This document shows positions 9,111 to 51,435 of a stretch of DNA of 64,000 bases, in pieces. Source of the stretch: Candidatus Eiseniibacteriota bacterium (lineage in GTDB: Bacteria > Eisenbacteria > RBG-16-71-46); contig OY970178.1 in assembly GCA_963707915.1 (NCBI GenBank), positions 2,144,001-2,208,000 of the forward strand, read 5' to 3'. The notes under the pieces are model-generated. The model saw only the letters and a program-made list of their open reading frames with translations, was not told where the DNA came from and ran no database searches. Each line of letters starts with the position of its first letter. Position 1 is the stretch's first letter. The position numbers were made by a program, and so were the translations under genes.

Positions 9111-9122
9111 GGTCGTCACCCC

Positions 9123-9892: not shown

Positions 9893-10175
9893 GAGCCGAT
9901 ACCTCGCTTTGGCGATCCTTCTGCGACGTGGTCCGTCGAACGACCTGCGGTGTCACGGTCTCGCGCCGCTCCTGGTGCGGACGGAGGCCGGAACGCGAAG
10001 CGACGGCGACGGACCCGTGCTGCCGTCGCCGGCTCGCGACCGGACACTAGCAGCGCAGGCCGCGACGCCCTACCGGCGCGAAGCCGACCCGGGCATCGAG
10101 CCCCGGTCGGCATCTGATCGGCGGCACCGCTCAGCCTGCACCTCGAAGCGGGACAACAGTTCCGCGCTCTCGCCC

Positions 10176-13745: not shown

Positions 13746-14249
13746 TCAGCGTGCCGGGCGCTCCATCAGCAGCCGGCGCGCGTACGGGATCAGGCCGCCC
13801 GCGTCGATGATGGCCTGCCGCGCCTGCGGCAGGGGCTCGATCGCGAACGACTTGCCCGAGGTGCGATTCCAGACCTTGCCATCCTTGATCTCGAGCTCGT
13901 CGCCCTCCGCCGCCTCGATGGCCGGGCAGATCACCATGGCGAGCCCGACGTTGATCGAGTTCTGCAGGAAGATGCGCGCGAAGTTCCGCGCGACGACCGT
14001 GATCTCGTAGCCCTTGATGCACGACGCGGCCTGCTCGCGCGACGAGCCGCAGCCGAAGTTGCCCCCCGCCACGATGAACGAGCCGGGCGGGACCTCCTTC
14101 GCCTTCAGCCGGCGGTTGAACTCCGCGTCGTCCACGAAGGCGAACTGCGGCGTCTCGGTCGGCAGCACCGTCGCCATGAAGCGGCCCGGGTAGATGATGT
14201 CGGTCGAGACGTCGTCGCCGAGCTTGCGCACGACCTTGCCGGTGGCCAT
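13746..14249 (-). CDS. Isopropylmalate/homoaconitate dehydratase family small subunit (LeuD/HacB-like)
   Basis: GDDVSTDIIYPG, AGGNFGCGSSREQA and FARIFLQNSINVGL. Confidence 0.92.
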   Translation of the reverse strand: MATGKVVRKLGDDVSTDIIYPGRFMATVLPTETPQFAFVDDAEFNRRLKAKEVPPGSFIVAGGNFGCGSSREQAASCIKGYEITVVARNFARIFLQNSINVGLAMVICPAIEAAEGDELEIKDGKVWNRTSGKSFAIEPLPQARQAIIDAGGLIPYARRLLMERPAR

Positions 14250-14250
14250 C

Positions 14251-15574: not shown

Positions 15575-16776
15575 TCAGACGATGCCCTTCGACTTGAGCG
15601 CTGCCAGCTCCTCCGGCGTCACCCCGACGCCCGCCAGCACCTCCGCGGTGTGCGCGGAGAGGCGCGGCGGCGCCGACGTGATGTCACCCGGGGTCTTCTC
15701 GAACTTCGCGGTCAGCCCGAAGAGCGGCAACGTGCCGAGCCCCTCCACGGGCACCTCCTTGCAGCGTGCCGCGGTGCCTGATCTGCGGCTGCCGCAGCGC
15801 CTCCTCGAGGCTCAGGATCTCCCCGCTCGGGACGTCCTTCGCGTTGAGCAGCTCCACCCACTCCTTCGTGGGGCGTTCGGCGAGCTTCACCTCGAGCAGC
15901 GGGGTCAGCGCCTTGCGGTTCTTCTTGCGGATGTCGCGCTTCTGGAAGCGCGGGTCGGTCTTGAGCTCGGGCACGCCGAGCACGTCGCAGACCGCCTCCC
16001 ACTGCTCCTGCTTGTTCGCGGCGATGTTGATGTAGCCGTCCTGGGTGCGGAACGTGCCCGACGGCGCCGCGGTGAAGTTGTCGTTGCCCATGAGCACCGG
16101 CTGCTGCTTGCCGATCAGCAGGTTCGCCGCGACCCAGCCCATCAGCGGCATGATGGAGTCGAGCATCGCGACGTCGATGAACTGCCCCTCGCCCGTGCGC
16201 TCGCGGTGGTAGAGCGCGGCCATGACGGCGAAGGCCGCGTTGAGCCCGCCCACCGTGTCGCACACCGGGAAGCCGGCGCGCAGCGGGTTCAGGCGCTCGT
16301 CGCCGTTCACCGCCATCTCGCCGCTCAGGCCCTGGATGATCTGGTCGTAGGCCGGCTTGAACGCGTCCGGCCCGGTCTGCGCCGAAGCCGGAGATGGCGC
16401 AGTAGACCAGCCGCGGGTTGATCTGCCTGAGCACGTCGTAGCCGAGCCCGAGGCGGCCCATCACGTCGGGCCGGAAGTTCTCCACCAGCACGTCGGCGTC
16501 CTGCACCAGCTTCTTGAAGATCTCCTTGCCCTCGGGCGTCTTGGTGTTGAGCGTCACCGACTTCTTGTTGGCGTTCTGGGCCAGGAAGCTGGTGCCCATC
16601 AGCTGCTCGTTCAGCTCGGGCACGATGCCGAGCTTGCGCGCCAGGTCGCCGTCCTTCGGGTTCTCGATCTTGATGACCTCGGCGCCGAGCAGCGCCAGGT
16701 GCAGCGTGGCGAACGGCCCCGCCAGCACGTTGGTGAGGTCGAGCACCCGCATGCCCGAGAGGATGGATCGGCTCAT
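15575..16776 (-). CDS. Family III (CaiB/BaiF) CoA-transferase; frameshifts near 16375, 15760 and 15650
   Basis: RVLDLTNVLAGPFAT, NANKKSVTLN, DVLVENFRP, KPAYDQIIQG (active-site Asp) and GEGQFIDVAM. Ends ...HTAEVLAGVGVTPEELAALKSKGIV*. Confidence 0.9.
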
Positions 16777-36125: not shown

Positions 36126-37085
36126 ATGAAGCGGATCCTGGCCGTGCTGCTCGTGCTGCTCGCCGGCGCGGCCATGGTGCTGCTGCGCCCCGCCGCGCAG
36201 CGCTTCCCCTCGCACCCCCGCCCGGCCACCAGCTACGCGGACGCGCTGCGGCGCGTCTCGGCGGTCGGGGCCCGCGACGACGCCACGATCGCGCCCGAGT
36301 GCCGCACCCTGCTCCTCACCCACGGCGCCCGCACGGCGCGTGCGGTGGTGCTGCTGCACGGCCTGACGAACTGCCCGGAGCAGTTCCGGGTGCTGGGCGA
36401 GCGGCTCTACGGGCGCGGCGCCAACGTCTACATCCCGCGCCTGCCGGAGCACGGCCTGGCGGACCGCATGACCGGGGCGCTGGCGCGGCTCGACGCGCGG
36501 GCGATGTGCGCCGCCACCGACGAGGCGGTGGACATCGGCCGCGGCCTGGGCGACAGCGTCATCGTGGTGGGGCTCTCGATCGGCGGCGTGATGGCCGAGT
36601 GGGCCGCGCAGGAGCGCGCCGACGTGGTCCGCGCGGTGCCCATCGCCCCGCTGCACGGCCTCGCCCGGGCGCCCGGGGCGCTCGCCGGGCCGGCGATGAA
36701 CCTGCTGCTGACGCTGCCCAACCAGTTCGTGTGGTGGGACGACAAGCGGAAGGCCGACCTGCCCGGGCCGAAGCACGTCTACCCGCGCTTCTCGACCCGG
36801 GCCGCCGGCGAGACCGTGCTGCTGGGCGCCGCGGTCGAGGCCGAGGCGCGCCGCGCCCCGCCCGCCGCGCGCTCGATCGTGGTGATCACGGTGGGCGGCG
36901 ACGTCGCGGTGGACAACCCCGCGGTCGCCCGGCTGACCCAGGTCTGGCGCGCGCACGGCGCGCACGTCATCGCCCGCGAGTTCCCCGCGCGCCTGCGCCT
37001 CAACCACGACATCATCGATCCCGTGCAGGTCGGCGGGAACCCGGCGCTCGTCTACCCGGTGCTCCTGGACCTGATCGCGCCCTGA
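36126..37085 (+). CDS. Exported alpha/beta hydrolase (esterase-like)
   Basis: VLLHGLT, nucleophile elbow GLSIGG, C-terminal Asp and His; N-terminal signal or anchor. Confidence 0.85.
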   Translation: MKRILAVLLVLLAGAAMVLLRPAAQRFPSHPRPATSYADALRRVSAVGARDDATIAPECRTLLLTHGARTARAVVLLHGLTNCPEQFRVLGERLYGRGANVYIPRLPEHGLADRMTGALARLDARAMCAATDEAVDIGRGLGDSVIVVGLSIGGVMAEWAAQERADVVRAVPIAPLHGLARAPGALAGPAMNLLLTLPNQFVWWDDKRKADLPGPKHVYPRFSTRAAGETVLLGAAVEAEARRAPPAARSIVVITVGGDVAVDNPAVARLTQVWRAHGAHVIAREFPARLRLNHDIIDPVQVGGNPALVYPVLLDLIAP

Positions 37086-37131
37086 GGCCGGCGTGGTGGA
37101 CACGCGAACCGTCGGGCGCGCTCCGCGAGGG

Positions 37132-37935
37132 TCAGGCCTGCGCCACCCGTTCCAGCACGGCACGGATCCCGCGCAGCGTGTCGGCGCCCGAGCGGTGGCC
37201 GACGGCGAGCAGCGCGGCGACCGCCCGTCCCAGCACCTTCGCTCCCGGTTTCGGCAACGCCAGCGTCTCCAGCAGCCCCAGCACCGGCTCGGCGTAGAAA
37301 CCCGCCGCTGCGGCGTCGAGCATCTGCGCGGCGAGGCGCGTGGTCCGGGACGTGCCGCGCTCGAGTTCCGCGCTCAGCCGCCGGCGCAGGGTCGCCGCGG
37401 CGCCGGACGCCTCGCTCGCTGCGTCGAGCCCGGCCAGCACGCCCACGATCACGTCGTCGCCCGAGGGCGTGAGCCCCTCGCCCAGCCCGACGAGCGCCGC
37501 GAGCCCGCGGATCTCGCCGCCCGCCCGGAAGCGCGCCAGCGCGGCCTCGATCACCGGTTCGAACGGCCCGGCCGGCGGCGCCGCGCCCGCGTGCCGCGCG
37601 AGAGCGGCCGCCGATGCCGGCAGCGCGCGCAGCCGGCGCCGCAGCCGCAGCTCCACGACCTCGAGCCCGGCGAGTTCGATCTTCAGGGCCCCCACCTGGA
37701 TGACGCCCTGCGAGACGCGCAGCGGCGCGCCCTCGCAGATGCCCGCGAGCTCCGGCACGGCGAGCGGCACGGCGACCGCCCAGGGGTGCAGCGGCGTCTC
37801 CGCGGGCAGGAGTGCGACCAGCGGCCCGTCGTCCAGCAGCAGGTTCACGGCCCGCGCGTGGACCGAGACGACGGAGCCGCGCCGGTCGCCCATCAGCGCC
37901 TCGGCGGCGAAGGGTCCGGCGCGGCGTGCGCTCAT
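37132..37935 (-). CDS. DUF2877 protein (YlbF/AllH/YahE-like)
   Basis: GSVVSVHARAVNL, LVGLGEGLTPSGDD and VGHRSGADTLRG. Confidence 0.85.
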   Translation of the reverse strand: MSARRAGPFAAEALMGDRRGSVVSVHARAVNLLLDDGPLVALLPAETPLHPWAVAVPLAVPELAGICEGAPLRVSQGVIQVGALKIELAGLEVVELRLRRRLRALPASAAALARHAGAAPPAGPFEPVIEAALARFRAGGEIRGLAALVGLGEGLTPSGDDVIVGVLAGLDAASEASGAAATLRRRLSAELERGTSRTTRLAAQMLDAAAAGFYAEPVLGLLETLALPKPGAKVLGRAVAALLAVGHRSGADTLRGIRAVLERVAQA

Positions 37936-37948
37936 CGGCTGCGACTCG

Positions 37949-38854
37949 CTAGCGCTTCAGCCTGCGCTTCGCCGTCGTCCGCCGGGCCGCGGGATTGCGG
38001 CCGTGCAGTTGCGGCGCGAGCGCCCCGGCGATGTCGCCGTACTTCGTCAGCTTGCACTTCGCCTTGATCTTCATGAGCTTCGCGTAGCGGGCGTCGTCCA
38101 CGAACGCCACGATGCGGGCGATCGAGGACTCGCCGTCCACGAAGCGCCAGGGGAAGCAGCCGATCTGCACGCGCTGGTTGAGCAGCAGGTCGATGTCGCC
38201 GCCCAGGCACTCGGCGTGGATGATGCCGTGGTTGAACATCTCCAGGTGCATCAGCTGGTACTTGCCGTCGTCGAAGAACTCGGCCAGCGGCTTGCCGTAC
38301 TTCGCGCGGAAGTGCGCGTCCGCCTGGCGCGCCTGGCGCGGCATCCAGTCGCGGATGATGGTGTTCATCGGGTGGTCGGCGCTGCCGCAGTCCACGCCGA
38401 TCCAGCGCAGCTTCTTGCGCTTGGCCCACTGGGCGAACTCCCGGTCGGGACCGGGGTGCTTGACCATGTAGGCGATCTCGTCGGCCGTGGGCTGGTCCCA
38501 GCCGTGGTGGTGGAAGCCGGTGTGGATGATGAGGATGTCGCCGGTCCGCACCTCGACCCGCTCCTCGACCATCTTCGAGGTGTAGACGTCGTAGGCGCCG
38601 CACACGTCCGAGAGATCGACCACCGCCGCGTCGTGCACCAGGAAGTCCATGTCGAGCGAGGCGATGTCCTTGCCCGGCGTGTAGAAGTGGATCTCGCCGT
38701 CGAGGTGCGTGCCGAGGTGGTTCGAGTGCGTGAGCAACTGGCCGTTGGCGCCGTTGGGCGCGAGCCGCTTGAAGTACTTGATCTGCAGCGGCTCGTAGGT
38801 CGGCCACGCCGGGGTGGCGATGCCGAGGGGGATGGTCAGGTCGATGAGCTTCAT
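37949..38854 (-). CDS. Cyclase-family metal amidohydrolase (kynurenine formamidase/isatin hydrolase fold)
   Basis: MKLIDLTIP, HLGTHLDG (HxGTHxD), GDILIIHTG and IGVDCGSADHP. Confidence 0.9.
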   Translation of the reverse strand: MKLIDLTIPLGIATPAWPTYEPLQIKYFKRLAPNGANGQLLTHSNHLGTHLDGEIHFYTPGKDIASLDMDFLVHDAAVVDLSDVCGAYDVYTSKMVEERVEVRTGDILIIHTGFHHHGWDQPTADEIAYMVKHPGPDREFAQWAKRKKLRWIGVDCGSADHPMNTIIRDWMPRQARQADAHFRAKYGKPLAEFFDDGKYQLMHLEMFNHGIIHAECLGGDIDLLLNQRVQIGCFPWRFVDGESSIARIVAFVDDARYAKLMKIKAKCKLTKYGDIAGALAPQLHGRNPAARRTTAKRRLKR

Positions 38855-38880
38855 GTTCTCCTCCGGGACGTGACGGCGCG

Positions 38881-40334
38881 TCAGGCCTGCGGGGCCGGTG
38901 CGCCGAGCGACTCTGCGAACGCGAGCAGCGCCTGGCGGAAGCACGCGATCGGCGGCTTCACCAGGCCGGCACCGACCATGCCGATGCCGGGCTGCTTGTG
39001 CGCGATGCCGGTGTTGACGACCGGCACGACGCCGCTCTCGACCACCTTGAGCAGGTCGATGCCGGACGCCGTGCCGCGGAAATCGAGCGCCGGGATCTTG
39101 TAGACCGGGTGCTCGGCGAGCGTGATGTCGTACATGCGACGGGTGTAGCCGAGCGCCTGCGCGGCGCTGCCGCCCACGAACTGGACGATGGCGGGCGCGG
39201 CGGCCATGGCCATGCCCCCGAGCCCGGCGGTCTCGGTGATGACCGAGTCGCCGATGTCGGGCGCGGCGTCGGCGGCGCCGAAGCCAGGCAGGTAGAGCCC
39301 GTCCACCATGGGCGCGGGAGCGGTGAACCAGCGGCCCGGCAGGGCCGACACCTGGATGCCGAAGTCGGTGCCGTTGCGCGCCATGACGCTGATCATCGAG
39401 TCGAGCGCGGGATGCCGGCCGCCGGGTCGAGCGAGCACTTGCTCGCCGCCATCGAGAGGTTGAGGAAGAAGTGATCGTTGCCGTCGAGGAAGCGCAGGAC
39501 CGCGGCGATGTCGTCCGTGGCCGCCCGGATGCCGACCAGGTGCGGCGCCAGCGTGCGGATGAGCAGCGAGGTGGCCGCGCGGTTGCGGTTGTGCACCTCG
39601 TCGCCCATCTGCAGCGCCTGGGCGATCACGTTGCGCAGGTCGAGCGGCCCGTGCGCGGCCAGCGCCTCGCGCAGCGCCGGGGCCAGCACCTGCTCCATCC
39701 AGCGCAGGCGGGTGAGCACCTCGTCGTCGTAGGCGCCGTAGCGCAGCACCTTGCCCAGCCCCTCGTTCAGCGTGGAGTAGGCGCGGTTGCCGAACGCCGT
39801 GTTCTCGAGGATCCAGACCGGCATCGAGGCGGTGACCACGCCGGCCATCGGCCCGACGGCGGCGTGGTGGTGGCAGGGCGCGAACGCGACCTTTCCCGAG
39901 GCGGCGAGCCGCGCGGCCTCCTCGGGCGTCCGCGCCAGGCCCTCGTAGACCAGCCCGCCCATCACCGCGCCGCGGGTCGGCCCGCTCATGCGCTCCCACT
40001 CGACCGGCGGACCGGCGTGGAGCACCAGGTCCTTGCGCATGCCGGGGACGACGTCGAGCGCGGTGCCGATGCCGACGATGGTCGGCCGCGCCGCCAGCAG
40101 CCGCTCGACCGACTGGCGGGTCGCCGCGGCGATGTCGGCGCGCACCGCGCCGTCCGCGCCCAGGCAGGCGTCGAGCGCCGCGAGCAGGGCGGGGTCGCCG
40201 CCCGCGGGCGGGCGCCAGTCCACGTCCACCGCGCTGCCTCCGGCGCTGCGCAGGTCGGCCGCGAACGAGGCCAGGCCGACGTTCACCACCGACAACTCCG
40301 CGCCGAAGAGCGCGAGCACCTTCTCGACGTTCAT
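38881..40334 (-). CDS. DUF1116 protein (YlbE/AllG/YahG-like) with an FdrA-tail-like N-terminal segment; frameshift near 39400
   Basis: N-terminus VVNVGLASFAADL..VDWRPPAGG; LHAGPP, PCHHHAAVGPMAG, NEGLGKVLRYGA, MGDEVHNRN, NDHFFLNL, MARNG, DIGDSVITE and NTGIAHK. Confidence 0.9.
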
Positions 40335-41868
40335 CGCGCCGCCCTCCCCAGCACCGCCGCGGCGAACCGCGCGGCGCGCCGGTTGTCGGTCTCGACGGTG
40401 ACCCCGGCATCCGCGAGCCGGCGCACCTGCGCGTCGTAGTCCTGCGGGTCCCCGTCGCGTGCCCGTGACCGAGGCGATGGCCACCAGTTCGCGGCCGGGC
40501 GCGCGGCGCCGCGCCTGTTCCACGCCGGCCGCCAGCACGCCCGCCGGGTCCGGGTGCGAGCCGTAGCCGATCACGCAGTCGAAGAGCAGCACGCCGGCCG
40601 CCGCGTCGGCCATCTCGACCGCGAGCCGCTCGTTGCGCAGCCCGGGCTCGATCATCGGGTGCGGCCGCCCGCGCGTGAACACGTCGTCGCCGAGGTCGAG
40701 CAGGACGTGGCCGGCGACGGGCGCCACGCCGTCCACCCGCAGCGCGCCCCTCTTGTGCAGGTTCGAGCGCACCTCGAGCCCGGCGCGGGTCGAGCAGCGC
40801 GAGCGCCTCCTGGCCGGTGGTGCCCCCGCAGAAGAGCGCCTTGAGCGCCGCGCCCGGCCGCAGCAGGGCGGCCGCCGCCGCGACGCAGGACTCGTCCGCG
40901 ATCGCCGGCGGCGGTGCGGAGGCCAGGCCGCTGCGCCGGCACGCCAGCTCCGCCGCGTCGGCCAGCGAGTCGGCGAAGACGATCCCTCGGGCCGCATCCT
41001 CCGCGCGCGGAACGTCTCCGACGAAGTGGACCACGCACGGCTTGCGCGTGGCCGCCAGCGCGTCGACCACCCGCTGCGCCACCTCCGCCGCCGGCGGCTT
41101 CGAGACGACGACGATCACCTTCGTCTCCGGGTCGGCCGCGAGCGCCTCGATGCCGAGCAGCATCATCAGCCCGCCGACCTCGGCCGAGAGATCGCGCCCG
41201 CCCGTGCCGATGGCCTGCGAGACTCCGCCGCCCAGGCGGTGGATGACGCTCGAGACCTCCTGGATGCCCGTGCCCGCCGCGCCCACGATGCCGATCGGCC
41301 CGCGCCGCACGGCGTTGGCGAAGGCCAGCGGCCGGCCGCCCAGGATGGCGGTGCCGCAGTCGGGGCCCATCAGCAGCAACCCGCGCCCGGCCGCCTCCTG
41401 CTTGAGCGCGACCTCGTCGGCGAGCGACACGTTGTCCGAGAAGAGCATCACGTGCCGGCCCAGCGCGAGCGCGCGCCGCGCCTCGCGGGCGGCGTGCTCG
41501 CCGGGCACGGAGATGAGCACCAGGTTCGCCGCAGGGTGGGACGCGACCGCCGCCGCGAGCGACGACGGCCGGGCCTCCTCGCCCGCGCCGGCGTGCGACT
41601 GCGCCTTCAGCAGCCGCTCCAGCTCCGCCTCGACCGCCGCCGGCGAGTCCGCCGCGCCCTTCACCGCGATGAGCAGGTCGTTGGGCGTGGCGCTCGCCAG
41701 CTCGGCGCCGCCGTAGCCCTGCGCGCCGAGCAGGTCGCGGTTCTGCGGCGTGCCCATGGCGACCACCGCGTCCTCGACGCCCGCGAGGCCGCGCAGCGCC
41801 TGCGAGACGCGCATCAGCAGGACCGAGTCGTGATACGAGTCCCTGCGGACCAGGACGAAGGCGGCCAC
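40331..41868 (-). CDS. fdrA: FdrA (AllF/YahF)-like protein, succinyl-CoA-synthetase fold; frameshifts near 40790 and 40450
   Basis: YHDSVLLM, ISVPG, FSDNV, MGPDCGT, GAAGTGIQE, GTGGRDLS, DLGDDVFTRGRPHPMI and GYGSHPDPA. Confidence 0.88.
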
Positions 41869-41878
41869 GTCGCCCCCG

Positions 41879-44759
41879 CTACTTCCGGCTCGCGTCCGTC
41901 GCGGACCCGGCCGGCCGCGCCTTCGCCTCCGCGGCGCGCTTGAGCGTCAGGAAGACGCGCTCCGGATCGAGCGGCAGCTCGAAGAACTCGACGCCGGTGG
42001 CGTTCGCGACCGCGTTGCCCACCGCGCCCGGCACCGAGATCATCGGGTGCTCGGCCACGCCGCGCGCGCCGTAGGGCCCCTGCGGATGCGGCGTCTCGAC
42101 GAAGAACTGCCGCATCTCGGCCGGGATGTCCTTGGCGGTCGGGATCTTGTAGTCGGTGAACGAGTTGTTGAGCAGCCGGCCGTTCTGGAACACGAACTTC
42201 TCCATGACCGCCGAGCCCAGCCCCTGCACCACGCCGCCGATCACCTGCATGCGGCACTGCTGCGCGTTCAGCACCTTGCCCGCGTCGAAGGCCGAGACGA
42301 GCCGGAGCACGCGGATGTGGCCGGTGTCGGTGTCCACCTCGAGCTCGACGGCGTGCGCGCCGTAGGTCCAGTTGAGCGCCGGCAGCCCCTGGCCGGTCTC
42401 GCGGGTCGAGGTTGGTGAGGCCGGTCGCGATGTAGCGGCCCTTGCCGATCACCGGCCCGCCGATGCTGCTGCCGTCGGGGTAGGTGTAGCCCAGCACGAG
42501 CTGGCTGTAGTCGAGCGTGCGGGCGGGCTTGCCCTTCACCCAGACCTTGCCCTCGTCGCACTCGATCTGGTCGGGCGGGGCGTGCAGCGCCTGCCCGGCG
42601 ACATCGCGGATCTGGTCGAGGCACTCCTTCGCCGCCTGGATGACGGCGTTGCCGCCCATCACCGAGAAGCGGCTCGCCACCGTCTGCCAGTCGTAGGGCG
42701 TGTAGTCGGTGTCGCTGTCCCACGGCACGCGCACCTTCTCGAGCGGGAGCCGCAGCTCGTCCGCCGCGATCTGCGCGAGCGCGGTGTAGGTGCCCTGGCC
42801 GTAGTCCACGCCGCTCACCAGCACGTTGGCCGAGCCGTCGCCGTTGAACAGGATGGTGACCGAGCACGAGGTGTAGGTCGGCATGGCCGGCGCCTTGTGC
42901 AGCATCGCCACGCCCTTCGCCCGCACCTTGCCGGAGCCCGGCGCGACCGGCTTCGCCGCGCGCGCCTTCGGATCCCAGCCGATCGCCTCGCTGACCAGCC
43001 GCAGGCACTCCTCGGGCCGGCCGTGGCCCGTCGGTGAACGGCTCGCCGGTGATGGTGGTCTCGCCCACGCGCAGCAGGTTCTTGCGGCGGAACTCGACCG
43101 GGTCGATGCCCAGCGCGCGCGCCACCATGTCCATGTTGCGCTCGATGCCCCACAGCACCTCGAGGTGGCCGAAGCCGCGGTAGGCGGTGCCGTGGATCTT
43201 GTTGGTGTAGACCACCAGGGAGTCGAGTCTTGCAGTTCGGGCACCACGTAGGGCCCGGCGCCGGAGTAGGCCGCCGCGCGCCCGACGTTGACGCCGTAGT
43301 CGGCGAAGGCGCCCGCGTCCCACAGGTAGGTGAGGTCGAGCGCGGTGATGCGGCCGTCCTTCGTCACCCCGGTCTTGATGGTGCTCTGCAGGCCCTGGCG
43401 CGAGGGCAGGGTGTTGAACTCCTCCTCGCGCGTGGCGCTGATCTTCACCGGGCGCCCGCCGGCCGCCTTCGACAGGCAGTAGACCAGCGGCTCGAGGTGG
43501 ATGCCGGCCTTGCCGCCGAAGCCGCCGCCGACGTAGGGCACCCGCACGCGCACCTTGCTCGGGGGCCATGCCGAAGGTGCGGCAGAACAGCGTGCGCACG
43601 GTGAACGGCGACTGGGCCGAGGTGATGATCTCGACCTCGCCGTCGGCCCGCGCGGTGGCGATGGCGACGTGCGTCTCCATCGGCACGTGCTGGACCGGCG
43701 GGTTCTGGAAGCGCGAACTCGAACACGCGGTCCGCCTCGGCCATGCCCTTCTCGACGTCGCCCTTGCGGATCTTCTGGTGGTGGGCGGTGTTGCGGCCCG
43801 GCTGCGGGAAGAACACGCCCTTCATCCACGAGTAGTCCGCCAGGCCGGGGTGCACCTGCGGCGCGCCCTCCTTCAGCGCGGCGTGCACGTCGAGCACCGG
43901 CTCCAGCACCTCGTAGTCGATCTCGATCGCCAGCGTGGCGAGCTTGGCCTGGATCCAGGTCTCCGCCGCCACCGCCGCCACCGCCTCGCCCTGGTGGTGC
44001 ACCACGCCGCGGGCGAGGATGTCCTTGTCCTCCATGTAGAGCCCGAGCTTGTAGGGCAGGTCGGCGCCGGTGAGCACCGCCTTCACCCCCGGCATCGCCT
44101 TCGCCTTCGACACGTCGATGCGCCGGATGCGCGCCGAGGGGTGCGGCGAGGTGAGGATGCGGCCGTGCAGCATGCCCGTCCAGCACCATGTCGTGCACGA
44201 ACGTCGCCGAGCCCGTCACCTTGGCCGCGGCGTCCACGCGGTTGACCTCGCCGCCCACGTAGGGCGCGGTGGGCGCCGCCTTCGCGCGGTAGTTCCCCTT
44301 CGCCACCGCCTCGACCGCTTCGATGATGGGCTGGTAGCCGGTGCAGCGACAGTAGTTCCCCGAGAGCGCCTCGACGATCTCGTCGCGCGTCGGGTTGGGC
44401 TTGCGCTTCAGCAGCGCGCGCGCGGAGGCCAGCATGCCCGGCGTGCAGAAGCCGCACTGGATCGCGCCGTGGTCCACGAACGCCTGCTGCAGGGCGGAGA
44501 GCGTGCCCGGCTCGCCGTTCTCGGCCTCGGCGGTCTCGATGACCGCGCCGTCGGCCTCGACCGCGAACACCAGGCAGGAGTTCACCGGCTTGCCGTCCAG
44601 GATCACCGTGCACAGCCCGCACTCGCCGATGTAGCAGCCCGACTTCACGCTGTGCTGGTGCAGGTCCTCCGACAGCAGCTGGTGCAGCGTGCGGTCGGCC
44701 GGGACCTCGAGCGTCGAGGTCTCGCCGTTCACCGTCAGGGTGATGCGGTGGAGGCTCAT
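41879..44759 (-). CDS. Xanthine-dehydrogenase-family molybdoenzyme with fused 2x[2Fe-2S] and Mo-binding domains; about 6 frameshifts
   Basis: GCYIGECGLCTV, QCGFCTPG and NYCRCTGY run in frame into RVDAAAKVTG. Later frames give SPHPSA, HVPMET, YVGGGFGGK, AYRGFG, GQGTYT and GPYGARGVAE. Confidence 0.9.
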
Positions 44760-45608
44760 GACGGCCTCCCCGTCGCCGAGCAGCCGGCGCGCGAGCCGGC
44801 GGCACAGCACGGCGGTCATCTCGCGCCGGTACTCGGCCGAGGCCCGCACGTCGTCGATCGGCAGGATGTGCTCCAGGGCCAGCGCGGCGAGGCGCTCGCC
44901 CACGTCCTTCGGGTCCGACCGGGGCCCCACCCCGGCGAGCGCCGGCACCAGCGCCGGCCGCACCGCGCACGAGCCGATCGCCACGCGCAGCGTGCCCGCG
45001 ACCGGGTCCCAGGCGGCGGCCGAGTTCACGATCGCCAGGTCGTGCCCGTACGAGCGCTTGATCTTGTCGAACGCGCTGGTCAGCCCCGCCGGCCGGCTTC
45101 GGCACGACCACCGCCGTCACCAGCTCGCCGGGGGCGAGCGCGGTCTGCTTGACGCCCAGGAAGAAGTCCGCGAGCGGCGCCTCGCGCGTCCCCTGCGGGC
45201 CCGCGACCCGCAGCCGTCCGTTCAGCACCAGCAGCGGCGGGGCGGTGTCCATGCAGGGCGAGGCGTTCGAGAGGTTCCCGGCGACGGTGGCCCGCCAGCG
45301 GATCTGCAGCGAGCCGATCGCCTCCGCGCCCTCCGCGAGCGCGGTGAAGGCCTCGCGGATGCGCCGTCCTCGGCCACGTCCTGCACCCGCACGCAGGCGC
45401 CGATCTCCAGCTCGCCCGCCGGCGTCCAGGTGATCCTCCCCAGCTCGGGGATGCGCTTGATGTCCACCAGCACGTCGGGTCGCGGACCGCCGCGCAGCGC
45501 GATCATCAGGTCGGTCCCGCCGGCCAGGATCCTCGCGCCCGCCGGCCCGGCCAGCAGCGCGGTGGCCTCGGCCACCGTGCCCGGTCTCTCGTAGCGGAAG
45601 CCACTCAT
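44756..45608 (-). CDS. Xanthine-dehydrogenase-family FAD-binding subunit; frameshifts near 45360 and 45090
   Basis: MSGFRYERPGTV, LAGGTDL, LVDIKRI, IGSLQIRWRATVAGNLSNASP and PIDDVRASAEYR. As assembled it reads in frame into the next gene. Confidence 0.88.
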
Positions 45609-45693
45609 GGTCTCTTCTCCCCTGCGGTCCACGGTCCGGAACGCCGGTGCGCCCGCGGTCGCGAGCGCGCCGCGGGGCACCGGGCGCTTCCGG

Positions 45694-46033
45694 CTAGACG
45701 GCGGTGAAAACCAGCCCGGTGATGTCCTTGCCGTTGGTCTCGCGCACCTTGCCGACGTGCGCCCGCACGCGCGCGCCGGTCTTCGGCTCGGCGATCTCCA
45801 GCCGGCCGGTCGCCCGCACCCCCATGTCCAGCTCGACGATGCCGAGCGTGACGTAGAGCTGGGCGTAGTCCAGCGGCAGCGCGTAGACGCGCGTCCAGGT
45901 CAGCAGCTTGCCCTCGCCCTCGACCGGGACCGGCTCGAACTGGGTGCCGCGGCAGGACGGGCAGTAGAAGTGCGTCGGATACGACGAGCTTGCCGCAGTT
46001 CTTGCACTTGGCGGCTTCGACGTTCATGGCCAT
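45694..46033 (-). CDS. DUF35 Zn-ribbon/OB-fold protein (thiolase partner); frameshift near 45982
   Basis: Reconstructed: AKCKNCGKLVYPTHFYCPSCRG...GEGKLLTWTRV...LGIVELDMGVRATG. Confidence 0.85.
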
Positions 46034-46034
46034 G

Positions 46035-47222
46035 TCACACCCCCCGCTTGAGCACGGTGGCGACGACGTTGTTGCCGAAGCCGCCGAAGTTCACGGCGAA
46101 GCCGTGCTTCGGCTGGTTCGGCACCTGGTAGTCGCCCGCCTCGCCGCGCAGCTGCAGCACCAGCTCCACGATCTGCGACACGCCGGTGTTGCCCACGGGA
46201 TGCCCGCGCGACTTGAGCCCGCCCGACGGGTTGATGGGCAGCTTCCCGCCGATCTTCGTCTCGCCCCGCTCGAGCGCCTTGTGGCCCTCGCCCTTCTTGA
46301 AGAAGCCGCACTCCTCGCTCTCGGCGATCTCGAGGATGGTGAAGGCGTCGTGCAGCTCGGCCACGTCGATGTCCTTCGGCTTGAGCTTCGCCATGGCGAA
46401 CGCCCGCTCCGCCGCCATCCGCACCGCGGTCAGCTCGGTCGGGTCGGGCCGGTCCTGCACCGCCTGCGAGTCGGTCGCCTGGCCCATGCCGGCGATCAGC
46501 ACCGGCGTCTTCTTGAACTCCTTCACCATGTCGGCCGGGGCCAGCAGCACCGCCGAGGAGCCGTCGCTCACCGGGCAGCAGTCGAAGAAGCGCAGCGGCT
46601 CGGCGATCCACGGGTTGTTGTTGAGCGCGTCCGGCCCGGTCAGGATGCCCTCCATCGTGACCGGGATGCGCAGGTGCGCCTTCTTGTTCTTCGCGCCGTT
46701 GAGGTGGTTCTTGATCGCCACCATCGCCAGGTGCCGGGCCTCGACCCCGTAGCGCTCCATGTACAGGCGCGTGAACATCCCCGCCAGCGCGGGCAGCGTC
46801 ACGCCGTAGACGTACTCGGCGTAGCGGTGCGAGAGGTACGAGACGAACTCGGTCGCCTCGAAGTTGTTGACCTCCTGCATGCGCTCGCCGCCGCACACCA
46901 GCACCAGGTCGCAGTAGCCCGAGGCCACGGAGTGCACGCCGTGCTTGATGGCCGAGGCGCCCGAGGCCGGGCCGTTCTCGATGGTCTCGGAGACCGCGTG
47001 CGGGTACAGGTTCATCCGGTCGACGAGCCCGCTGGACAGGCCGGCCATGCGGTTGTTGCGCGGGGCGCCCATGTTGGCGACGTAGACCGCGTCGATCTTC
47101 CGCTCGCCGATGCCGGCGTCCACGATGGCGTCGTGCGAGGCCTCGCACATCATCTTGAGCAGGCTCCACTGGGCCCGCCCGAACTGCGTCGAGCCCACGC
47201 CGACGATGGCCACGTCCCTCAT
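46035..47222 (-). CDS. SCP2/archaeal-type thiolase-family protein lacking the catalytic Cys
   Basis: VAIVGVGSTQFG, KNHLNGAKN, DCCPVSDGSSA, AELHDAF and INPSGGLKSRGHPVG. The nucleophile position reads IENGPASG instead of xExACASG. Confidence 0.9.
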   Translation of the reverse strand: MRDVAIVGVGSTQFGRAQWSLLKMMCEASHDAIVDAGIGERKIDAVYVANMGAPRNNRMAGLSSGLVDRMNLYPHAVSETIENGPASGASAIKHGVHSVASGYCDLVLVCGGERMQEVNNFEATEFVSYLSHRYAEYVYGVTLPALAGMFTRLYMERYGVEARHLAMVAIKNHLNGAKNKKAHLRIPVTMEGILTGPDALNNNPWIAEPLRFFDCCPVSDGSSAVLLAPADMVKEFKKTPVLIAGMGQATDSQAVQDRPDPTELTAVRMAAERAFAMAKLKPKDIDVAELHDAFTILEIAESEECGFFKKGEGHKALERGETKIGGKLPINPSGGLKSRGHPVGNTGVSQIVELVLQLRGEAGDYQVPNQPKHGFAVNFGGFGNNVVATVLKRGV

Positions 47223-47968
47223 ATGCGGGCCTCCAGCGTGTTCTCGATCTGGGTCAGCATCACGCGCAGGTCCGGCTCGCGCAGCGGGTAGGACGAGGCC
47301 AGCAGCTCGGCGGAGACCGGGCGCGTGCCCGTGACCAGCCGCGACTTGGCCTTGAAGTAGGTGTCGCGGGTCAGCACCCAGGCCGGCGCGCCGCCCAGCT
47401 CGTGCTGCACCTCGAACTTCTTGTCGAGCGGGTACTCGATCATCCAGCGACGGTGGCCGATCGGGCTCTCGGCCACGATCCAGACCTCGTCCTGGCCCAG
47501 GTACTCGATGTGGTGCTCCATCTTCGAGGCGAACAGGTGCGAGCCCACCCGCAGCCCGCGCTTGAGCGTCAGCGTGTGGAACGAGACGCCGTGCTTCTCG
47601 TCGAACAGCCGGCCGTTCACGATGCCGGCCAGCACGCCGTCGATCACCCCGACCAGGCAGTACTCGTTGCGCACGCGGTAGGTCTTCCAGCCCAGCAGCT
47701 CGGCGAACAGGCGGGCCGAGACGATGTCGTAGAAGTCGCGGCTCAGCCAGGAGAGCGGCTGGATGACCTTGAGCATCAGGTCCACCTCGTCCACCGAGGC
47801 CTGGCGCACGACCATGGTCTCGCCGCTCGCGAGCAGGACGGCCTTGGGGGGATAGGGGGCCATGGGCAGCACCGGTGGCCGCAACATGGCCTCGAGTTCG
47901 TCGATCATGCGCTCCTCCTCGGAGGTGAGGTACTCGTCGGCATCCCAGTCGTAGACAGGGGGGCTCAT
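47219..47968 (-). CDS. Conserved hypothetical protein, probable GNAT-like fold
   Basis: 249 aa; ATGA overlap with the thiolase. MVVRQAS, YCLVGVIDGVLAGIV and LKRGLRVGSHLF resemble GNAT strands and the R/Q-x-x-G-x-G/A loop. The fold call is inference. Confidence 0.6.
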   Translation of the reverse strand: MSPPVYDWDADEYLTSEEERMIDELEAMLRPPVLPMAPYPPKAVLLASGETMVVRQASVDEVDLMLKVIQPLSWLSRDFYDIVSARLFAELLGWKTYRVRNEYCLVGVIDGVLAGIVNGRLFDEKHGVSFHTLTLKRGLRVGSHLFASKMEHHIEYLGQDEVWIVAESPIGHRRWMIEYPLDKKFEVQHELGGAPAWVLTRDTYFKAKSRLVTGTRPVSAELLASSYPLREPDLRVMLTQIENTLEARI

Positions 47969-48028
47969 CGAAGGCTCCAGGCTGAAACGGGTCGCCCGCC
48001 GGACAGGAAACGGTGGGCAGAACCCGAT

Positions 48029-48057
48029 TCGATACCACTTTCGCGCGGTTCCAGCAA
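48029..48057 (-). promoter_or_regulatory. Possible sigma-70 promoter of the GNAT-thiolase-XDH operon
   Basis: Minus strand TTGCTG-N17-TATCGA with an extended -10 TG, about 60 nt upstream of ATG 47968. The match is weak. Confidence 0.25.
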
Positions 48058-48231
48058 CGAAGTGAGGACTTTCGGGCCATTCGACGGGACCGAAGGACGG
48101 GCGGAACCGCGGATCCCGGTGGGAAGAATCCCGCAGCGGGTCGGGATCGAGGAAGCCACGGGCGGAGAGCGTCGAGCGAGGCGGCCACCCCGGTGTCGAG
48201 GTGGCCGCCCCGTGAACGACCCCTCCCGGTC

Positions 48232-51200
48232 TCAGCGAACGATCACGGCCCGGGCCGTCAACCTGCGGCTGCCCCTTGCCAGGCGCACCAGGTACACGCC
48301 CGGTGCCAGCGAGCGTCTCTCTCCCAACTGCACCACGTGACTGCCGCCACCGAGCGGTCCGACCTCCCGCACCGCCACCCGGCGTCCGGCCAGGTCGAAC
48401 GCCTCCAGCCGCGCCGGCGCGGCATCGGGCAGCGAGAACGCCACCGCCAGCGCCACCGTCGCCGGGTTCGGGCACACCCCGGCGAGCGCCAACTCCGCGA
48501 CGCGCGGCACGTCCACCCAGGTCTCGCCCGCGAAGACCTCCCGTCCCTGGTCGAGCACGCCGAGCCGGTAGCCGTATCGCGTGCCCGGGGTCACCTGCCG
48601 GTCCTCGTAGACGACCAGCCCGGTCCCGTCCGCGGAGACGCTGCCAAGCGCGCTCCACGCTGCGTCGGCCACGCGCCGGTACACCGTCACGGCGCCACCA
48701 TCGCCGCCCGCCGTGTACCACGTCAGGCGCACCCGGTCCGGGTCGGCCAGCGCGCTCACCAGCGAGAGCAGCACCGGCGTGGACACGTCGTGGAGGTTGT
48801 GAGAGCAGGTGACGTGCTGCGGCAGGCCGCGCAGCGTCACGCGGAAGACCAGCGGGTTCAGGCCGTTCGCCGCGCTGTCCGGCACCGGGACCGAGAGGGG
48901 GACCGGCGCCGTGCCGTCCGCGCCGACCACGACGCTCCCCGAGACCGGGAAGCCGGGCCAGTCGCGTCCGCTCGCGAGCGTGTAGTCGGCGGTCTGCGCG
49001 AAGGCGTAGGGGTTGGTGACGCCGTAGCCGAGGTCACTGCTCGCTCCCGCCGTCCACACGACGTCCGCAGGGCAGGTCACGCCGGCCAGGGCGGGCGCGC
49101 CCCAGGTCAGCGACCGGATCTCGCTGCATGGGTTCGCGACCCAGCCGCCGACGAGCATCATGCGATCGCGCAGCGGATCGTAGATCGCGCTGTGGCCGTA
49201 CCGCGCGTTCGGCGGTGAGCCGGAGGGAGTCAGTTGCGTCCACTCGGGCGTGCCCGCCAGCGAGAGGGCCCAGACGTCGTCGAGGGGGTGCTCGCCGCCG
49301 CCCCCGAACACCACCATGCGGTCGCGCACCGGGTCGTAGATCGCGCTGTGGCACATTCGCGCGCCCGGCGGCGTGCCGGTGGGCGTCAACTGCATCCAGG
49401 CCGGCGCGCCGGCCAGCGAGAGGGCCCAGACGTCGTTGAGGCGGTAGTCGCCGTAGCCCCCGAACACCACCATGCGGTCGCGCACCGGGTCGTAGATCGC
49501 GCTGTGGCACATTCGCGCGCCCGGCGACGTGCTGTAGGGAGTCAGGTCCGTCCACCTGGGTGTGCCCGCCAGTGACAACGCCCAGACATCGTCGAGGCGG
49601 ATGTCCCCGCTGTCGTCGCCCCCGAACACCACCATGCGATCGCGCACCGGGTCGTAGATCGCGACGAGGCCGACCCGGCCGACCGGGGGCGCGCCCGTGG
49701 GCGTCAGTCTCGTCCAGGCCGGGGTGTCCCCCATGGACAGTGACCATACGTCGTTCCGGAATTCGGCCGATCCGTCGAGGCCCCCGAACACGACCATTCG
49801 CTCGCGCACCGGGTCGTAGATCGCGCTGTGGAGGCACCGCGCGCTCGGCCGCGTGCCCGTCGGTTCCAGCGCCGTCCAGGTCGGCTTGTCCGCCGGCGAC
49901 AGCGACCAGACGTCATTGAAGGTGGCCGAGGCCCCATCACCTCCGAACACGACCATGCGGTCGCGCACCGGATCGTAGATCGTGCTGTGGAGGAACACCC
50001 CGGGCTGGGAATGGGAACCGGTCCAGGCCAGCGTGTCCGCCAGCGACAATGCCATGACGTCGTTGTAGTAGGCGTACCAAGGGGAGAGCCTGGCGACGCC
50101 CGCGAACACCAGCATGCGGTCGCGCACCGGATCGTAGATGGCGCCGTGACCGGCCCGCGCACCCGGCAACGTGCCGTCGGGTGCCAGCGCCGTCCACGCC
50201 GACGTGCCTGCGAGTGGGAACGCCCAGGTGTCTTCGAGCAGGCCGTCGAGGCCCGTACCCCCGAACACGATCATGCGGTCACGCACCGGGTCGTACACGG
50301 CGCTGTGGGCAAGCCGTGCGCCCGGCGAGGCTCCGTTCGGCGACAGCATCGTCCAGGCCGCCGTGCCCGCCAGCGGCAATGCCCAGGCGTCCCCGTAGGA
50401 GTAGTTCGCAGGGTAGGCGCCGGCGCCACCCCCGAACACCACCATGCGGTCACGCACCGGGTCGTAGATCGCGCTGTGGAGGTACCGTCCGCCCGGCGTG
50501 GTCGGGGAGTTCGGCAGCGCCGTCCAGCCCGGCGTGCCCCCCAGTGACAGCGCCCAGACGTCGTTGTACCAGCGCCAATCGTCATAGCCCCCGAACACCA
50601 CCATGCGGTCGCGCACCGGGTCGTAGATCGCGCTGTGCCCGTAACGCGCGTTCGGCAGCGAACCGGACGGGGTCAACAGCGTCCACTCGGTCGTGTCCCC
50701 CAGCGACAACGTCCAGACGTCGTTGCGGCGGTAGCCGTCGAAGCCTCCGAACACCACCATGCGGTCGCGCACCGGGTCGTAGATGGCGGTGTGGGAATAG
50801 CGCGCGCTCGGCGGCGTGCCGTCGGGCGTCAACTGGGTCCAGGCCGGCGCGCCCGCCAGCGTGAGCGCCCAGACGTCGTTGCGGGCGGAACCGTCGTAGC
50901 CCCCGAACACCACCATGCGGTCGCGCACCGGATCGTAGACCGCGCTCGGGTAGTCCCGCGCGCTCATCGGGCTGACCGGGATGATTCCCGGGTCGGGCTC
51001 GGACCACGAACCGTCGTCCGCCGCCGGAGCGCGGGTCGGGGGGGCCGGGCGGGTGTCGGTCGCAGGAGGACGGAGCGCCGACGGATCGCTCCCGCGCGCC
51101 AGGCGCATCATGAGTGCGCGCTGCCAGCGCGGCAGCAGCGTGTCGGCCGCTGCTAGCGCCAGTCCCTGGCGCGCTTCGGGCGCCAGCGACGGCACGCCCG

Positions 51201-51300
51201 GGAGTCCGGGCTGGCCGGAAGCGGCGACCGGGACCGCCAGGAAGAGGAGGAGGAGCGCGAGGACCCGGGCGGGGGCGCGGAACGGATGCGGCGGCCTCAT
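48232..51300 (-). CDS. Secreted kelch-repeat protein (12 blades) with a C-terminal FlgD/T9SS-like sorting domain
   Basis: Signal peptide; 12 copies of H-S-A-I-YDPVRDRMVVFGG...DVW; C-terminus FSLPDAAPARLEAFDLAGRRV...PGVYLVRL. Confidence 0.9.
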   Translation of the reverse strand: MRPPHPFRAPARVLALLLLFLAVPVAASGQPGLPGVPSLAPEARQGLALAAADTLLPRWQRALMMRLARGSDPSALRPPATDTRPAPPTRAPAADDGSWSEPDPGIIPVSPMSARDYPSAVYDPVRDRMVVFGGYDGSARNDVWALTLAGAPAWTQLTPDGTPPSARYSHTAIYDPVRDRMVVFGGFDGYRRNDVWTLSLGDTTEWTLLTPSGSLPNARYGHSAIYDPVRDRMVVFGGYDDWRWYNDVWALSLGGTPGWTALPNSPTTPGGRYLHSAIYDPVRDRMVVFGGGAGAYPANYSYGDAWALPLAGTAAWTMLSPNGASPGARLAHSAVYDPVRDRMIVFGGTGLDGLLEDTWAFPLAGTSAWTALAPDGTLPGARAGHGAIYDPVRDRMLVFAGVARLSPWYAYYNDVMALSLADTLAWTGSHSQPGVFLHSTIYDPVRDRMVVFGGDGASATFNDVWSLSPADKPTWTALEPTGTRPSARCLHSAIYDPVRERMVVFGGLDGSAEFRNDVWSLSMGDTPAWTRLTPTGAPPVGRVGLVAIYDPVRDRMVVFGGDDSGDIRLDDVWALSLAGTPRWTDLTPYSTSPGARMCHSAIYDPVRDRMVVFGGYGDYRLNDVWALSLAGAPAWMQLTPTGTPPGARMCHSAIYDPVRDRMVVFGGGGEHPLDDVWALSLAGTPEWTQLTPSGSPPNARYGHSAIYDPLRDRMMLVGGWVANPCSEIRSLTWGAPALAGVTCPADVVWTAGASSDLGYGVTNPYAFAQTADYTLASGRDWPGFPVSGSVVVGADGTAPVPLSVPVPDSAANGLNPLVFRVTLRGLPQHVTCSHNLHDVSTPVLLSLVSALADPDRVRLTWYTAGGDGGAVTVYRRVADAAWSALGSVSADGTGLVVYEDRQVTPGTRYGYRLGVLDQGREVFAGETWVDVPRVAELALAGVCPNPATVALAVAFSLPDAAPARLEAFDLAGRRVAVREVGPLGGGSHVVQLGERRSLAPGVYLVRLARGSRRLTARAVIVR
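49150..50945. repeat. Intragenic repeat array (about 12 units, 150-180 bp period) encoding kelch blades
   Basis: Near-identical core gaacaccaccatgcggtcgcgcaccgggtcgtagatcgcgctgtg recurs throughout. Confidence 0.9.
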
Positions 51301-51435
51301 GGGCAGTCTCTCGGGTGACGACTGGGACTCTCGGAGCCGGCGTGGAATCGGCGCCTATCATATAGCGAACGGCGCTCCATATCACCCTATTCCAGCGCAC
51401 GGCTCCCGGACCCGGCCGGCCGGGCCACCGCCCCC

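Follow-up and report, generated by a model that had tools for sequence, protein, structure and literature searches.

What would a bacterium break down with a molybdenum hydroxylase, relatives of an Escherichia coli carbamoyltransferase, a metal hydrolase and a thiolase-like protein that lacks the nucleophilic cysteine, all encoded in one run of nine genes? Such a run lies on the minus strand of a 64,000-nucleotide stretch of a Candidatus Eiseniibacteriota genome (assembly GCA_963707915.1, contig OY970178.1, positions 2,144,001 to 2,208,000), which we call the window and to which coordinates without a prefix refer. An initial annotation, made from the sequence without database searches, had proposed an undescribed route for an N-heterocycle or acyl-ureide and left the substrate blank. 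We think it rather probable, from the gene families and their genomic context, that the cluster encodes a variant of the oxidative pyrimidine pathway that needs no oxygen and conserves energy. It would convert uracil or thymine via barbiturate and ureidomalonate into carbamoyl phosphate and a malonyl unit, the latter ending as acetyl-coenzyme A (acetyl-CoA). Compared with the earlier proposal, what is new is the probable substrate, uracil or thymine, and a function for the pair formed by the thiolase-like protein and its DUF35 partner.

The proposed pathway

The route would comprise four steps. First, the hydroxylase, with flavin adenine dinucleotide (FAD), two [2Fe-2S] clusters and molybdenum cofactor, would use water to hydroxylate uracil or thymine at C6, giving barbiturate or 5-methylbarbiturate. 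Second, a cyclase-family metal hydrolase, standing in for barbiturase, would open the ring to ureidomalonate (N-carbamoylmalonamate). Third, FdrA-AllG-AllH, a paralogue of the E. coli oxamate carbamoyltransferase, would split ureidomalonate with phosphate into carbamoyl phosphate and malonamate, and a carbamate kinase encoded elsewhere in the genome could convert the former into ATP, NH3 and CO2. Fourth, a GNAT-fold protein (U) would work as an N-acyltransferase in reverse and shift the malonyl group onto CoA, and the Cys-less thiolase-fold protein (T), held by the DUF35 protein (D), would decarboxylate malonyl-CoA to acetyl-CoA, thereby pulling the uphill transfer. In genomes that lack AllG, U may draw the malonyl group straight from the acyl-urea. 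A more far-reaching version of this scheme is possible but doubtful: U-T-D would be a new kind of enzyme, a reverse GNAT that moves malonyl from an amide or acyl-urea to CoA while seated on a Cys-less decarboxylase, FdrA-AllG-AllH would be specific for ureidomalonate, and uracil would be fermented with two substrate-level ATP per ring; steps of the barbiturate pathway for which anaerobes had no genes would thereby gain them.

Organization of the cluster

The window has about 70% G+C, which makes its raw lists of open reading frames noisy. Third-position G+C content (GC3) and a Pfam scan of 55 minus-strand frames (35.3-52.1 kb) delimit a single gene run from 47968 down to 37132, and tblastn with the homologues from the related locus L013 (genome G025), where the same nine genes stand in the same order and unbroken, gives these genes:

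47219..47968, minus strand: U, 249 amino acids (P0001), GNAT fold, tightly conserved family without a name; intact
46035..47222, minus strand: T (P0002), thiolase fold with Pro replacing the nucleophilic Cys, Pfam Thiolase_C_1/Thiolase_N; intact
45694..46033, minus strand: D, DUF35 with zinc ribbon and OB fold; one frame break near 45985
44760..45608, minus strand: FAD subunit of the Mo-hydroxylase, FAD_binding_5 and CO_deh_flav_C; two frame breaks, 3' end approximate
41879..44806, minus strand: fused [2Fe-2S] and molybdopterin subunit of the Mo-hydroxylase; four frame changes (tblastn), start approximate
about 40331..41868, minus strand: FdrA/AllF-like subunit, CoA_binding and Ligase_CoA; two frame breaks; homology extends to 41889, start uncertain
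38881..40334, minus strand: AllG/YlbE-like subunit, PF06545; one 2-base frame break near 39398
37949..38854, minus strand: cyclase-family metal hydrolase, PF04199 (100.8 bits), HxGTHxDxxxH motif retained; intact
37132..37935, minus strand: AllH/YlbF-like subunit, PF11392; intact

ATGA overlaps join U to T (47222-47219) and FdrA to AllG (40334-40331), and five further junctions, in order along the cluster, have gaps of 1, 85, 10, 26 and 13 nucleotides. Pfam, tblastn and the translations agree with the nine co-oriented, tightly joined genes of the initial annotation and with the families it named; its order, FdrA-YlbE-YlbF and then the cyclase, has to be replaced by FdrA-AllG-cyclase-AllH. A promoter and terminator scan of 36800-48400 gave no promoter-like site; its single terminator-like site is on the wrong strand and no more than shuffled sequence leads one to expect, and the scan is uninformative on operon structure here. 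Contigs of a relative (about 94% identical) in the metatranscriptome library X15 cover 42025-47380, 39444-40787 and 37140-39473 and bridge seven of the eight gene junctions; contigs from an RNA library may come from DNA, and we take the bridging as a weak hint of co-transcription that does not imply a single transcript.

The hydroxylase and the probable identity of the ring

The hydroxylase carries the features of the xanthine dehydrogenase (XDH) family, namely FAD_binding_5/CO_deh_flav_C, two [2Fe-2S] domains, Ald_Xan_dh_C, MoCoBD_1/MoCoBD_2 and the catalytic Glu, with 'GIAEHP' opposite bovine 'AVGEPP'. Both subunits are intact in L013, the FAD subunit at L013:10606-11466 and the FeS/Mo subunit as a protein of 972 amino acids with Fer2, Fer2_2, Ald_Xan_dh_C, MoCoBD_1 and MoCoBD_2. 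The latter has Ala at both positions of bovine E802 and R880, which we take to be the purine-binding residues, and every XDH equivalog score is below its cut-off; the best NCBIfam matches of the Mo subunit are of the XdhA type (531 bits, cut-off 780).

Accessory genes at related loci point to pyrimidines. PucR-type regulators occur in L121-L127, and NCS2 permeases in L121 and L126-L131, loci of a second phylum in which 30 of the 78 unassigned open reading frames were scanned with Pfam and the scan extended by BLAST. The permease of L121 is a uracil permease at 657.7 bits (cut-off 477) and the only match in its genome; those of L126, L127, L128, L129, L131, L106 and the Eisenbacteria-labelled L014 and L025 score higher as uracil permease or RutG than as xanthine permease, below the cut-off. 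L029, L085 and L091 have cytosine-deaminase-like genes next to the cluster (259-407 bits, cut-off 438), accompanied in L085 by a uridine-phosphorylase-like gene (265 bits, cut-off 280). We favour uracil or thymine because of these uracil-type permeases and salvage genes and because the purine-binding residues are missing.

That the same chemistry acts on another ring, a purine such as xanthine or urate or a different N-heterocycle with a ureido group, is unlikely. Such a substrate would suit the PucR-family regulators and NCS2 permeases, which also take part in purine catabolism, as well as the XdhA-type matches of the Mo subunit and the TRZ/ATZ-type deaminase of L029, whose near-top matches include 8-oxoguanine deaminase. 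We rank the purine reading lower than the pyrimidine one: uracil permease or RutG stands above xanthine permease in all nine permeases scanned, one of them over the uracil-permease cut-off, the deaminase-like and phosphorylase-like neighbours are those of pyrimidine salvage, Ala occupies the two purine-binding positions, and the malonyl-type C3 unit implied by the decarboxylase swap described below would come from a pyrimidine ring, not from a purine. XDH homologues do act in anaerobic urate breakdown, the reductive uric acid pathway of E. coli and Clostridioides difficile, which shares with our proposal the anaerobic setting, an XDH-family first step and the release of a ureido group; its genes (XdhD, YgfK, SsnA, HyuA, YgeW and YgeX), differ from ours, include no FdrA, AllG, AllH, cyclase or U-T-D, and have only the XDH family in common with the cluster (bioRxiv 10.1101/2025.05.19.654654).

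Proposed ring opening and release of the ureido group

The cyclase-family protein, which reaches 111 bits in L013, presents the metal motif 'HLGTHLDGEIH' opposite 'HTGTHIDAPFH' of kynurenine formamidase. Its family includes amide and 1,3-diketone ring openers (PMC10470551), and among them dihydrophloroglucinol cyclohydrolase belongs to the same Pfam family, has a conserved metal site and opens a six-membered 1,3-dicarbonyl ring. That enzyme cuts a C-C bond in a carbocycle, and the window cyclase shares only the family with it. Two related loci hold other cyclase genes. At L096:16258-17925, a second cyclase-family gene (556 amino acids, with an N-terminal extension of about 300 amino acids) adjoins FdrA-AllG. 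The locus L094:1-12216, labelled Neomoorella stamsii, contains in this order XDH subunits, 3-oxoacid CoA-transferase B, a cupin regulator, BKACE, a distant cyclase (49% identity), a true thiolase and then U-T-D; this cyclase may be of the dihydrophloroglucinol cyclohydrolase type.

FdrA, PF06545 and PF11392, the three families of AllFGH, are encoded together in the cluster. In L013, FdrA matches NCBIfam PRK06091, a family named acyl-CoA synthetase, at 487 bits (cut-off 433), AllG reaches 330.6 bits (cut-off 27) and AllH 63.4 bits (cut-off 25). The E. coli complex AllFGH is an oxamate carbamoyltransferase with oxalurate as its substrate (Kim and Kim 2024, PMC11326118), and by analogy the chemistry of FdrA-AllG-AllH is likely the phosphorolysis of an N-acyl-urea to carbamoyl phosphate. 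The cluster resembles E. coli AllF-AllG-AllH/AllK in its three families, in the presence of a carbamate kinase in the genome and in hosts without urease. It differs in that no allantoin genes (allB, allC, allD, allE) lie nearby and no carbamate kinase belongs to the operon in the window, that a cyclase-family gene always stands between AllG and AllH or adjoins them, that the block is coupled to the Mo-hydroxylase and U-T-D, and that the proposed substrate, ureidomalonate, is one carbon longer than oxalurate.

The carbamate kinases, and the absence of urease matches in the genomes concerned, agree with carbamoyl phosphate as the product. A carbamate kinase above the cut-off lies within the cluster in L127, L128, L130 and L131; there is none among the 91 window frames scanned, and all five genomes of the window's order encode one outside the cluster. 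Urease alpha was found in none of ten holder genomes and in 5 of 14 controls. Urease-negative enterobacteria have the same pattern of carbamate kinase and urease, according to Kim and Kim (PMC11326118).

A route through CoA esters throughout, in which FdrA-AllG-AllH would activate a heteroaromatic acid as an ADP-forming acyl-CoA synthetase, the Mo enzyme would act on the CoA thioester, the cyclase would open the ring and U-T-D would cleave the chain, strikes us as quite unlikely. Mo enzymes that act on CoA thioesters exist, 4-hydroxybenzoyl-CoA reductase and furoyl-CoA dehydrogenase among them, and the alpha subunit of the former is the third-best solved relative of our Mo subunit (E 1.5e-88). 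U and T both have CoA-binding folds, and FdrA has CoA_binding and Ligase_CoA domains beside its synthetase name. Against this, the in-cluster carbamate kinases of four genomes point to carbamoyl phosphate, and the neighbours are permeases of the uracil type and genes of pyrimidine salvage. Cleavage of C-C bonds is within the reach of cyclase-family enzymes (PMC10470551), which would suit the CoA-ester route; the sole FdrA-AllG-AllH complex that has been tested is a carbamoyltransferase that does not need CoA (PMC11326118), which speaks against that route.

The GNAT-thiolase-DUF35 trio

U belongs to a widespread family. A search returned 1,940 homologues at E <= 0.001, and among the 120 listed every name given by the source is 'hypothetical protein'; identity is 70-96% across labels that include Riflebacteria, Actinomycetota, Sumerlaeota and Hydrogenedentota. 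A homologue that was scanned matched no Pfam or NCBIfam family at E <= 0.01, GNAT profiles included, and a profile search of 1.84 billion representatives found 203 proteins, all of U's own family. By its predicted structure U is a GNAT fold, as the initial annotation had supposed. The AlphaFold2 model (pLDDT 83.9, pTM 0.79) gives GNAT matches in Foldseek at probability 1.00 (136 matches at E <= 0.001), and VIA aligns 165 of its residues to 1yre_A (Z 13.0, root-mean-square deviation 3.4), with 184 chains at Z >= 8. After strand 4, presumably where GNATs bind the CoA pyrophosphate, U has an invariant 'RGLRVG'.

T aligns end to end with archaeal thiolases and has both Thiolase_N and C-terminal domains (PRK06064-type thiolase domain in L013, 403.6 bits, cut-off 420). 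The Cys of the 'CxSG' motif, which the initial annotation had reported missing, is replaced by Pro, so that 'ENGPASG' stands opposite 'ACASG' of 7yvy/6esq. All 21 homologues compared, which come from many phyla, have this Pro, and 'HDAF', 'GHPVG' and 'NFGGFGN' are likewise invariant; without the nucleophilic Cys, an acyl-enzyme cannot form. D has the four-Cys ribbon, with all four Cys invariant in 21 of 21 homologues, the OB domain and the thiolase-fold neighbour that characterize DUF35 proteins of the ChsH2 type.

The three genes travel together. Among 80 loci examined, out of at least 578 confirmed relatives in a species-level genome collection, T adjoins U in 72 of the 73 that could be evaluated and D in 69 of 70. 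Downstream of the U gene at L093:9932-10660 lies a large FlgD_ig-type gene. Co-folding of the subunits, which the initial annotation had recommended, places U on T and D with an ipSAE of 0.74. Of 157 solved complexes 116 score that high, as do 2 of 215 mismatched pairs, and the best of three controls scored 0.00; the model was run with our own alignments and on three chains instead of a pair, which makes this calibration only rough. Contact agreement between runs is at least 71% and partner pLDDT at least 83, and the modelled interface sets U 24-29, 118-124, 149-160 and 190-195 against T 183-203 and involves the invariant U stretch 'PIGHRRWMIEY'. No solved GNAT-thiolase complex from which the model could have drawn is known to us. 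The model supports binding of U to T and does not by itself show it.

What T and D may do is suggested by a low-GC variant of the cluster (L126:9694-14266 and L127:9638-14193), where OAD_beta, a biotin carrier, OAD_gamma and an mmdA-type carboxyltransferase (885 bits), the full set of a Na+-translocating methylmalonyl-CoA decarboxylase, replace T-D after U. The genomes of these loci lack a T orthologue, G334 having no T-family match and G360 a distant one only (299 bits, against 683 for orthologues), and their U has diverged (38% identity), with the T-contact stretch altered. Exchange for a Na+-pumping decarboxylase that is specific for CoA esters would imply that (methyl)malonyl-CoA is formed and that T-D decarboxylates it; such a decarboxylase is absent from the window and serves us only for this argument. 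Beside the cluster of a further locus, L096, an mmdA-like carboxyltransferase stands with a biotin carrier, and the same locus has a BMP-type ABC transporter and a CN-hydrolase. T keeps the His residues of the thiolase enolate-stabilizing pocket without the Cys, and the decarboxylating KS-Q domains, presumably Cys-less in the same way, offer a model for decarboxylation by T. U would load malonyl onto CoA because it is the only remaining protein with a CoA fold that is always beside the decarboxylase, and the uphill nature of a malonyl transfer from an amide would explain why U is docked there. The chemistry of the initial annotation, ring hydroxylation, hydrolytic opening, acyl-urea phosphorolysis and CoA-linked processing, fits both the carbamate kinases found in four clusters and this replacement of T-D in two.

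Known assemblies of a thiolase with DUF35 (the archaeal thiolase-HMGCS-DUF35 complex 6esq/6et9, PhlACB 5m3k, BbsAB 7pxp, Ltp2-ChsH2 6ok1) likewise place a thiolase-fold protein, which in T is of the SCP2 type, beside DUF35 and have a third subunit join them. The third subunit of the cluster differs in having a GNAT fold instead of being a second thiolase-fold enzyme, and T differs in its Pro and in its proposed job, decarboxylation. A CoA-independent acyl transfer of the PhlACB kind was set aside for T-D, given that T has no Cys and that PhlC, as we understand it, keeps its own.

Integrity of the window copy

The initial annotation had hinted at frameshifts, and tblastn with the intact L013 proteins locates ten frame changes in five of the nine genes (one in D, two in the FAD subunit, four in the FeS/Mo subunit, two in FdrA, one in AllG), with U, T, the cyclase and AllH unbroken. 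Each change coincides with one or two letters that are additional by comparison with L018, a locus of the same genus that matches the window at 92.8% identity over 10,761 aligned bases. In four runs, whose short-read contigs all stem from relatives (likeness at least 88%), 2 of the 10 frame-break positions are covered (12 of 66 indel rows), and contig depth in them cannot rank genes. The extra base at 43714 is missing in X1 (18.5/18.5), X2 (39.2/42.5) and X17 (2.02/2.02) and not in X15 (0/28.5); that at 40458 is missing in X15 (34/34) and in part of X2 (15.1/35.5) and not in X1 (0/7.78).

The frame breaks are probably assembly errors and not gene decay, and the copy is probably intact in the living organism. 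We conclude this because housekeeping genes and a carbamate kinase gene are split likewise, the fragments are conserved, GC3 is near 1.0 across the whole cluster, and relatives' contigs lack the extra bases. The genes that are split between frames or cut off outside the cluster are:

8142-9952: alpha and beta subunits of an electron-transfer flavoprotein (ETF)
13749-14787: aconitase-family gene
15687-16460: family III CoA-transferase
G000:C1:1655259-1656183: carbamate kinase gene, 0.5 Mb away

A decaying pseudogene array without function is very unlikely. It would account for the ten frame changes, spread over five of the nine genes, for extra letters that mostly lie outside long homopolymers and for the X15 contigs that show no deletion at 43714; it is opposed by the equal splitting of housekeeping genes and of the distant carbamate kinase gene, by fragments that keep 64-92% identity to L013 without stop-codon litter within frames, like an intact same-genus copy, by the uniform GC3 and by the relatives' contigs at both positions. 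Frame-breaking indels seem to occur genome-wide in this assembly, at roughly one per kb in the cluster.

Linkage across phyla

The initial annotation had staked its proposal on recurrent linkage of GNAT, thiolase and DUF35 genes to fdrA, DUF1116 and XDH genes in other genomes, and that linkage recurs. Trio and hydroxylase-FdrA-AllG-cyclase-AllH block co-occur across more than ten labelled phyla and in several gene orders; by record label they come from Eisenbacteria, Sumerlaeota, Acidobacteriota, Actinomycetota, Chloroflexota, Bipolaricaulota, Thermotogota, Spirochaetota and the Moorella group. Twenty loci have at least 9 kb of flank on either side; 14 of them contain FdrA, AllG and cyclase, 12 of these also XDH, and the block lies collinear downstream of the trio, divergent from it, or collinear upstream. 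In the remaining six, five of Thermotogae or Bipolaricaulota type and one of Spirochaetota, the trio stands amid housekeeping genes. Genomes with such a lone U-T-D have AllG elsewhere in five of five cases, four times in an XDH-FdrA-AllG-cyclase block (one of which also shows AllH) and once in an FdrA-AllG-cyclase-AllH block.

Co-occurrence extends to whole genomes. Twelve of the window's 41 relatives have U and 11 have AllG, all of them U-holders, and AllG is found in none of the 29 genomes without U; in the twelfth U-holder, G005, a contig end falls inside the cluster. AllG was present in 19 of the 22 U-holding genomes that were searched whole and matched in 1 of 14 control genomes. In the phylum of genome G046, U occurs in 12 of 401 sampled genomes, and of 11 loci fetched from this second phylum all have the cyclase and ten have AllG beside U. 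All-against-all clustering of 574 flanking open reading frames from the 80 loci revealed lineage-specific synteny only, except for the cytosine-deaminase-like gene, which recurs across phyla. The lineage synteny of Bipolaricaulota-labelled loci comprises ribosomal protein S9, DUF1385 and a pyridine-nucleotide disulfide oxidoreductase; the last is divergent from U-T-D in 13 loci with Bipolaricaulota or Thermotogae labels, such as L052, L057, L062 and L049 (about 7900-10100, minus strand), probably again through lineage synteny.

That an AllFGH-type branch for oxalurate or allantoin and a separate module for acyl-CoA are unrelated units and mere neighbours is scarcely credible, since the six lone trios and the two genomes with a trio and no AllG are outweighed by the genome-wide co-occurrence (19 of 22 against 0 of 29), by the joining of the blocks in at least four gene orders in different phyla, and by the 91 window frames scanned, none of which shows a domain of allantoinase, allantoate amidohydrolase or ureidoglycolate dehydrogenase, genes that the initial annotation had noted as absent.

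Evidence that weighs against the pyrimidine pathway

Several observations count against the pathway that we propose. Two of the 22 U-holders searched whole, G046 (the genome of L094) and G049 (that of L085), gave no AllG match, and in both the hydroxylase adjoins U-T-D; trio and hydroxylase can therefore work without the FdrA-AllG-AllH step. The neighbours of U-T-D in L094, BKACE of the 3,5-dioxohexanoate type, a CoA-transferase and a true thiolase, fit a beta-diketone route, perhaps a different use of the trio. L093 is the single locus where U stands without T-D. The window cluster contains neither a transporter nor a regulator, the window genome and two relatives have no gene of the uracil-permease type, PucR and NCS2 families serve purines too, and most permease, deaminase and phosphorylase scores lie below the curated cut-offs. 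A GNAT that transfers an acyl group from amide to thioester has, to our knowledge, no precedent. Steps 2 to 4 may follow one another in a different order, and the whole sequence of steps is deduced from genes.

Relation to known pathways and significance

In aerobic actinobacteria, the oxidative pyrimidine pathway proceeds through uracil/thymine dehydrogenase, barbiturase and ureidomalonase. The cluster would share its intermediates barbiturate and ureidomalonate and a Mo/FAD/FeS hydroxylase as first enzyme, and would differ in the enzymes of steps 2 to 4: the ring would be opened by an enzyme of the cyclase family, and carbamoyl phosphate instead of urea would carry off the ureido group, with the malonyl part released as a CoA ester instead of free malonate. 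The barbiturase family (AtzD/TrzD, PF09663) was matched in none of five genomes and equally in none of 14 controls, and we do not use it as evidence. The cluster resembles parts of known systems and is a member of no characterized pathway; the initial annotation likewise knew of none. No paper on this gene set was found in full-text literature, a coverage that leaves aside most subscription journals and supplements.

In strict anaerobes, pyrimidine breakdown is known mainly as a reductive route that yields no ATP. If our proposal holds, a widespread, energy-yielding alternative would exist, spread over at least 578 loci of the species-level collection, and sediments would have in it a sink for the carbon and nitrogen of nucleic acids. 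The FdrA, DUF1116 and DUF2877 families would gain a second substrate and the cyclase family a new ring-opening reaction, and a complex of GNAT, thiolase fold and DUF35 would be defined that has no described counterpart. Source names place U homologues in cultured Moorella and Clostridium species, and every step is therefore testable at the bench.

Neighbouring genes

Two genes border the cluster, and neither was found beside it in relatives:

36126-37085, plus strand: convergent gene, weakly alpha/beta-hydrolase-like (Hydrolase_4, 25.9 bits, cut-off 27)
48235-51354, minus strand: Kelch-repeat gene upstream of the cluster, 1,040 amino acids, nearly all Kelch/beta-propeller repeats (PF24681, 576 bits)

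The former had been described as a hydrolase that closes the run; its convergent orientation stands, and its identity as a hydrolase is weak at this score. Farther away, on the minus strand at 2940-9952, a 4Fe-4S protein, two CCG/4Fe-4S (HdrD-like) proteins and ETF alpha and beta look like an electron-transfer module.

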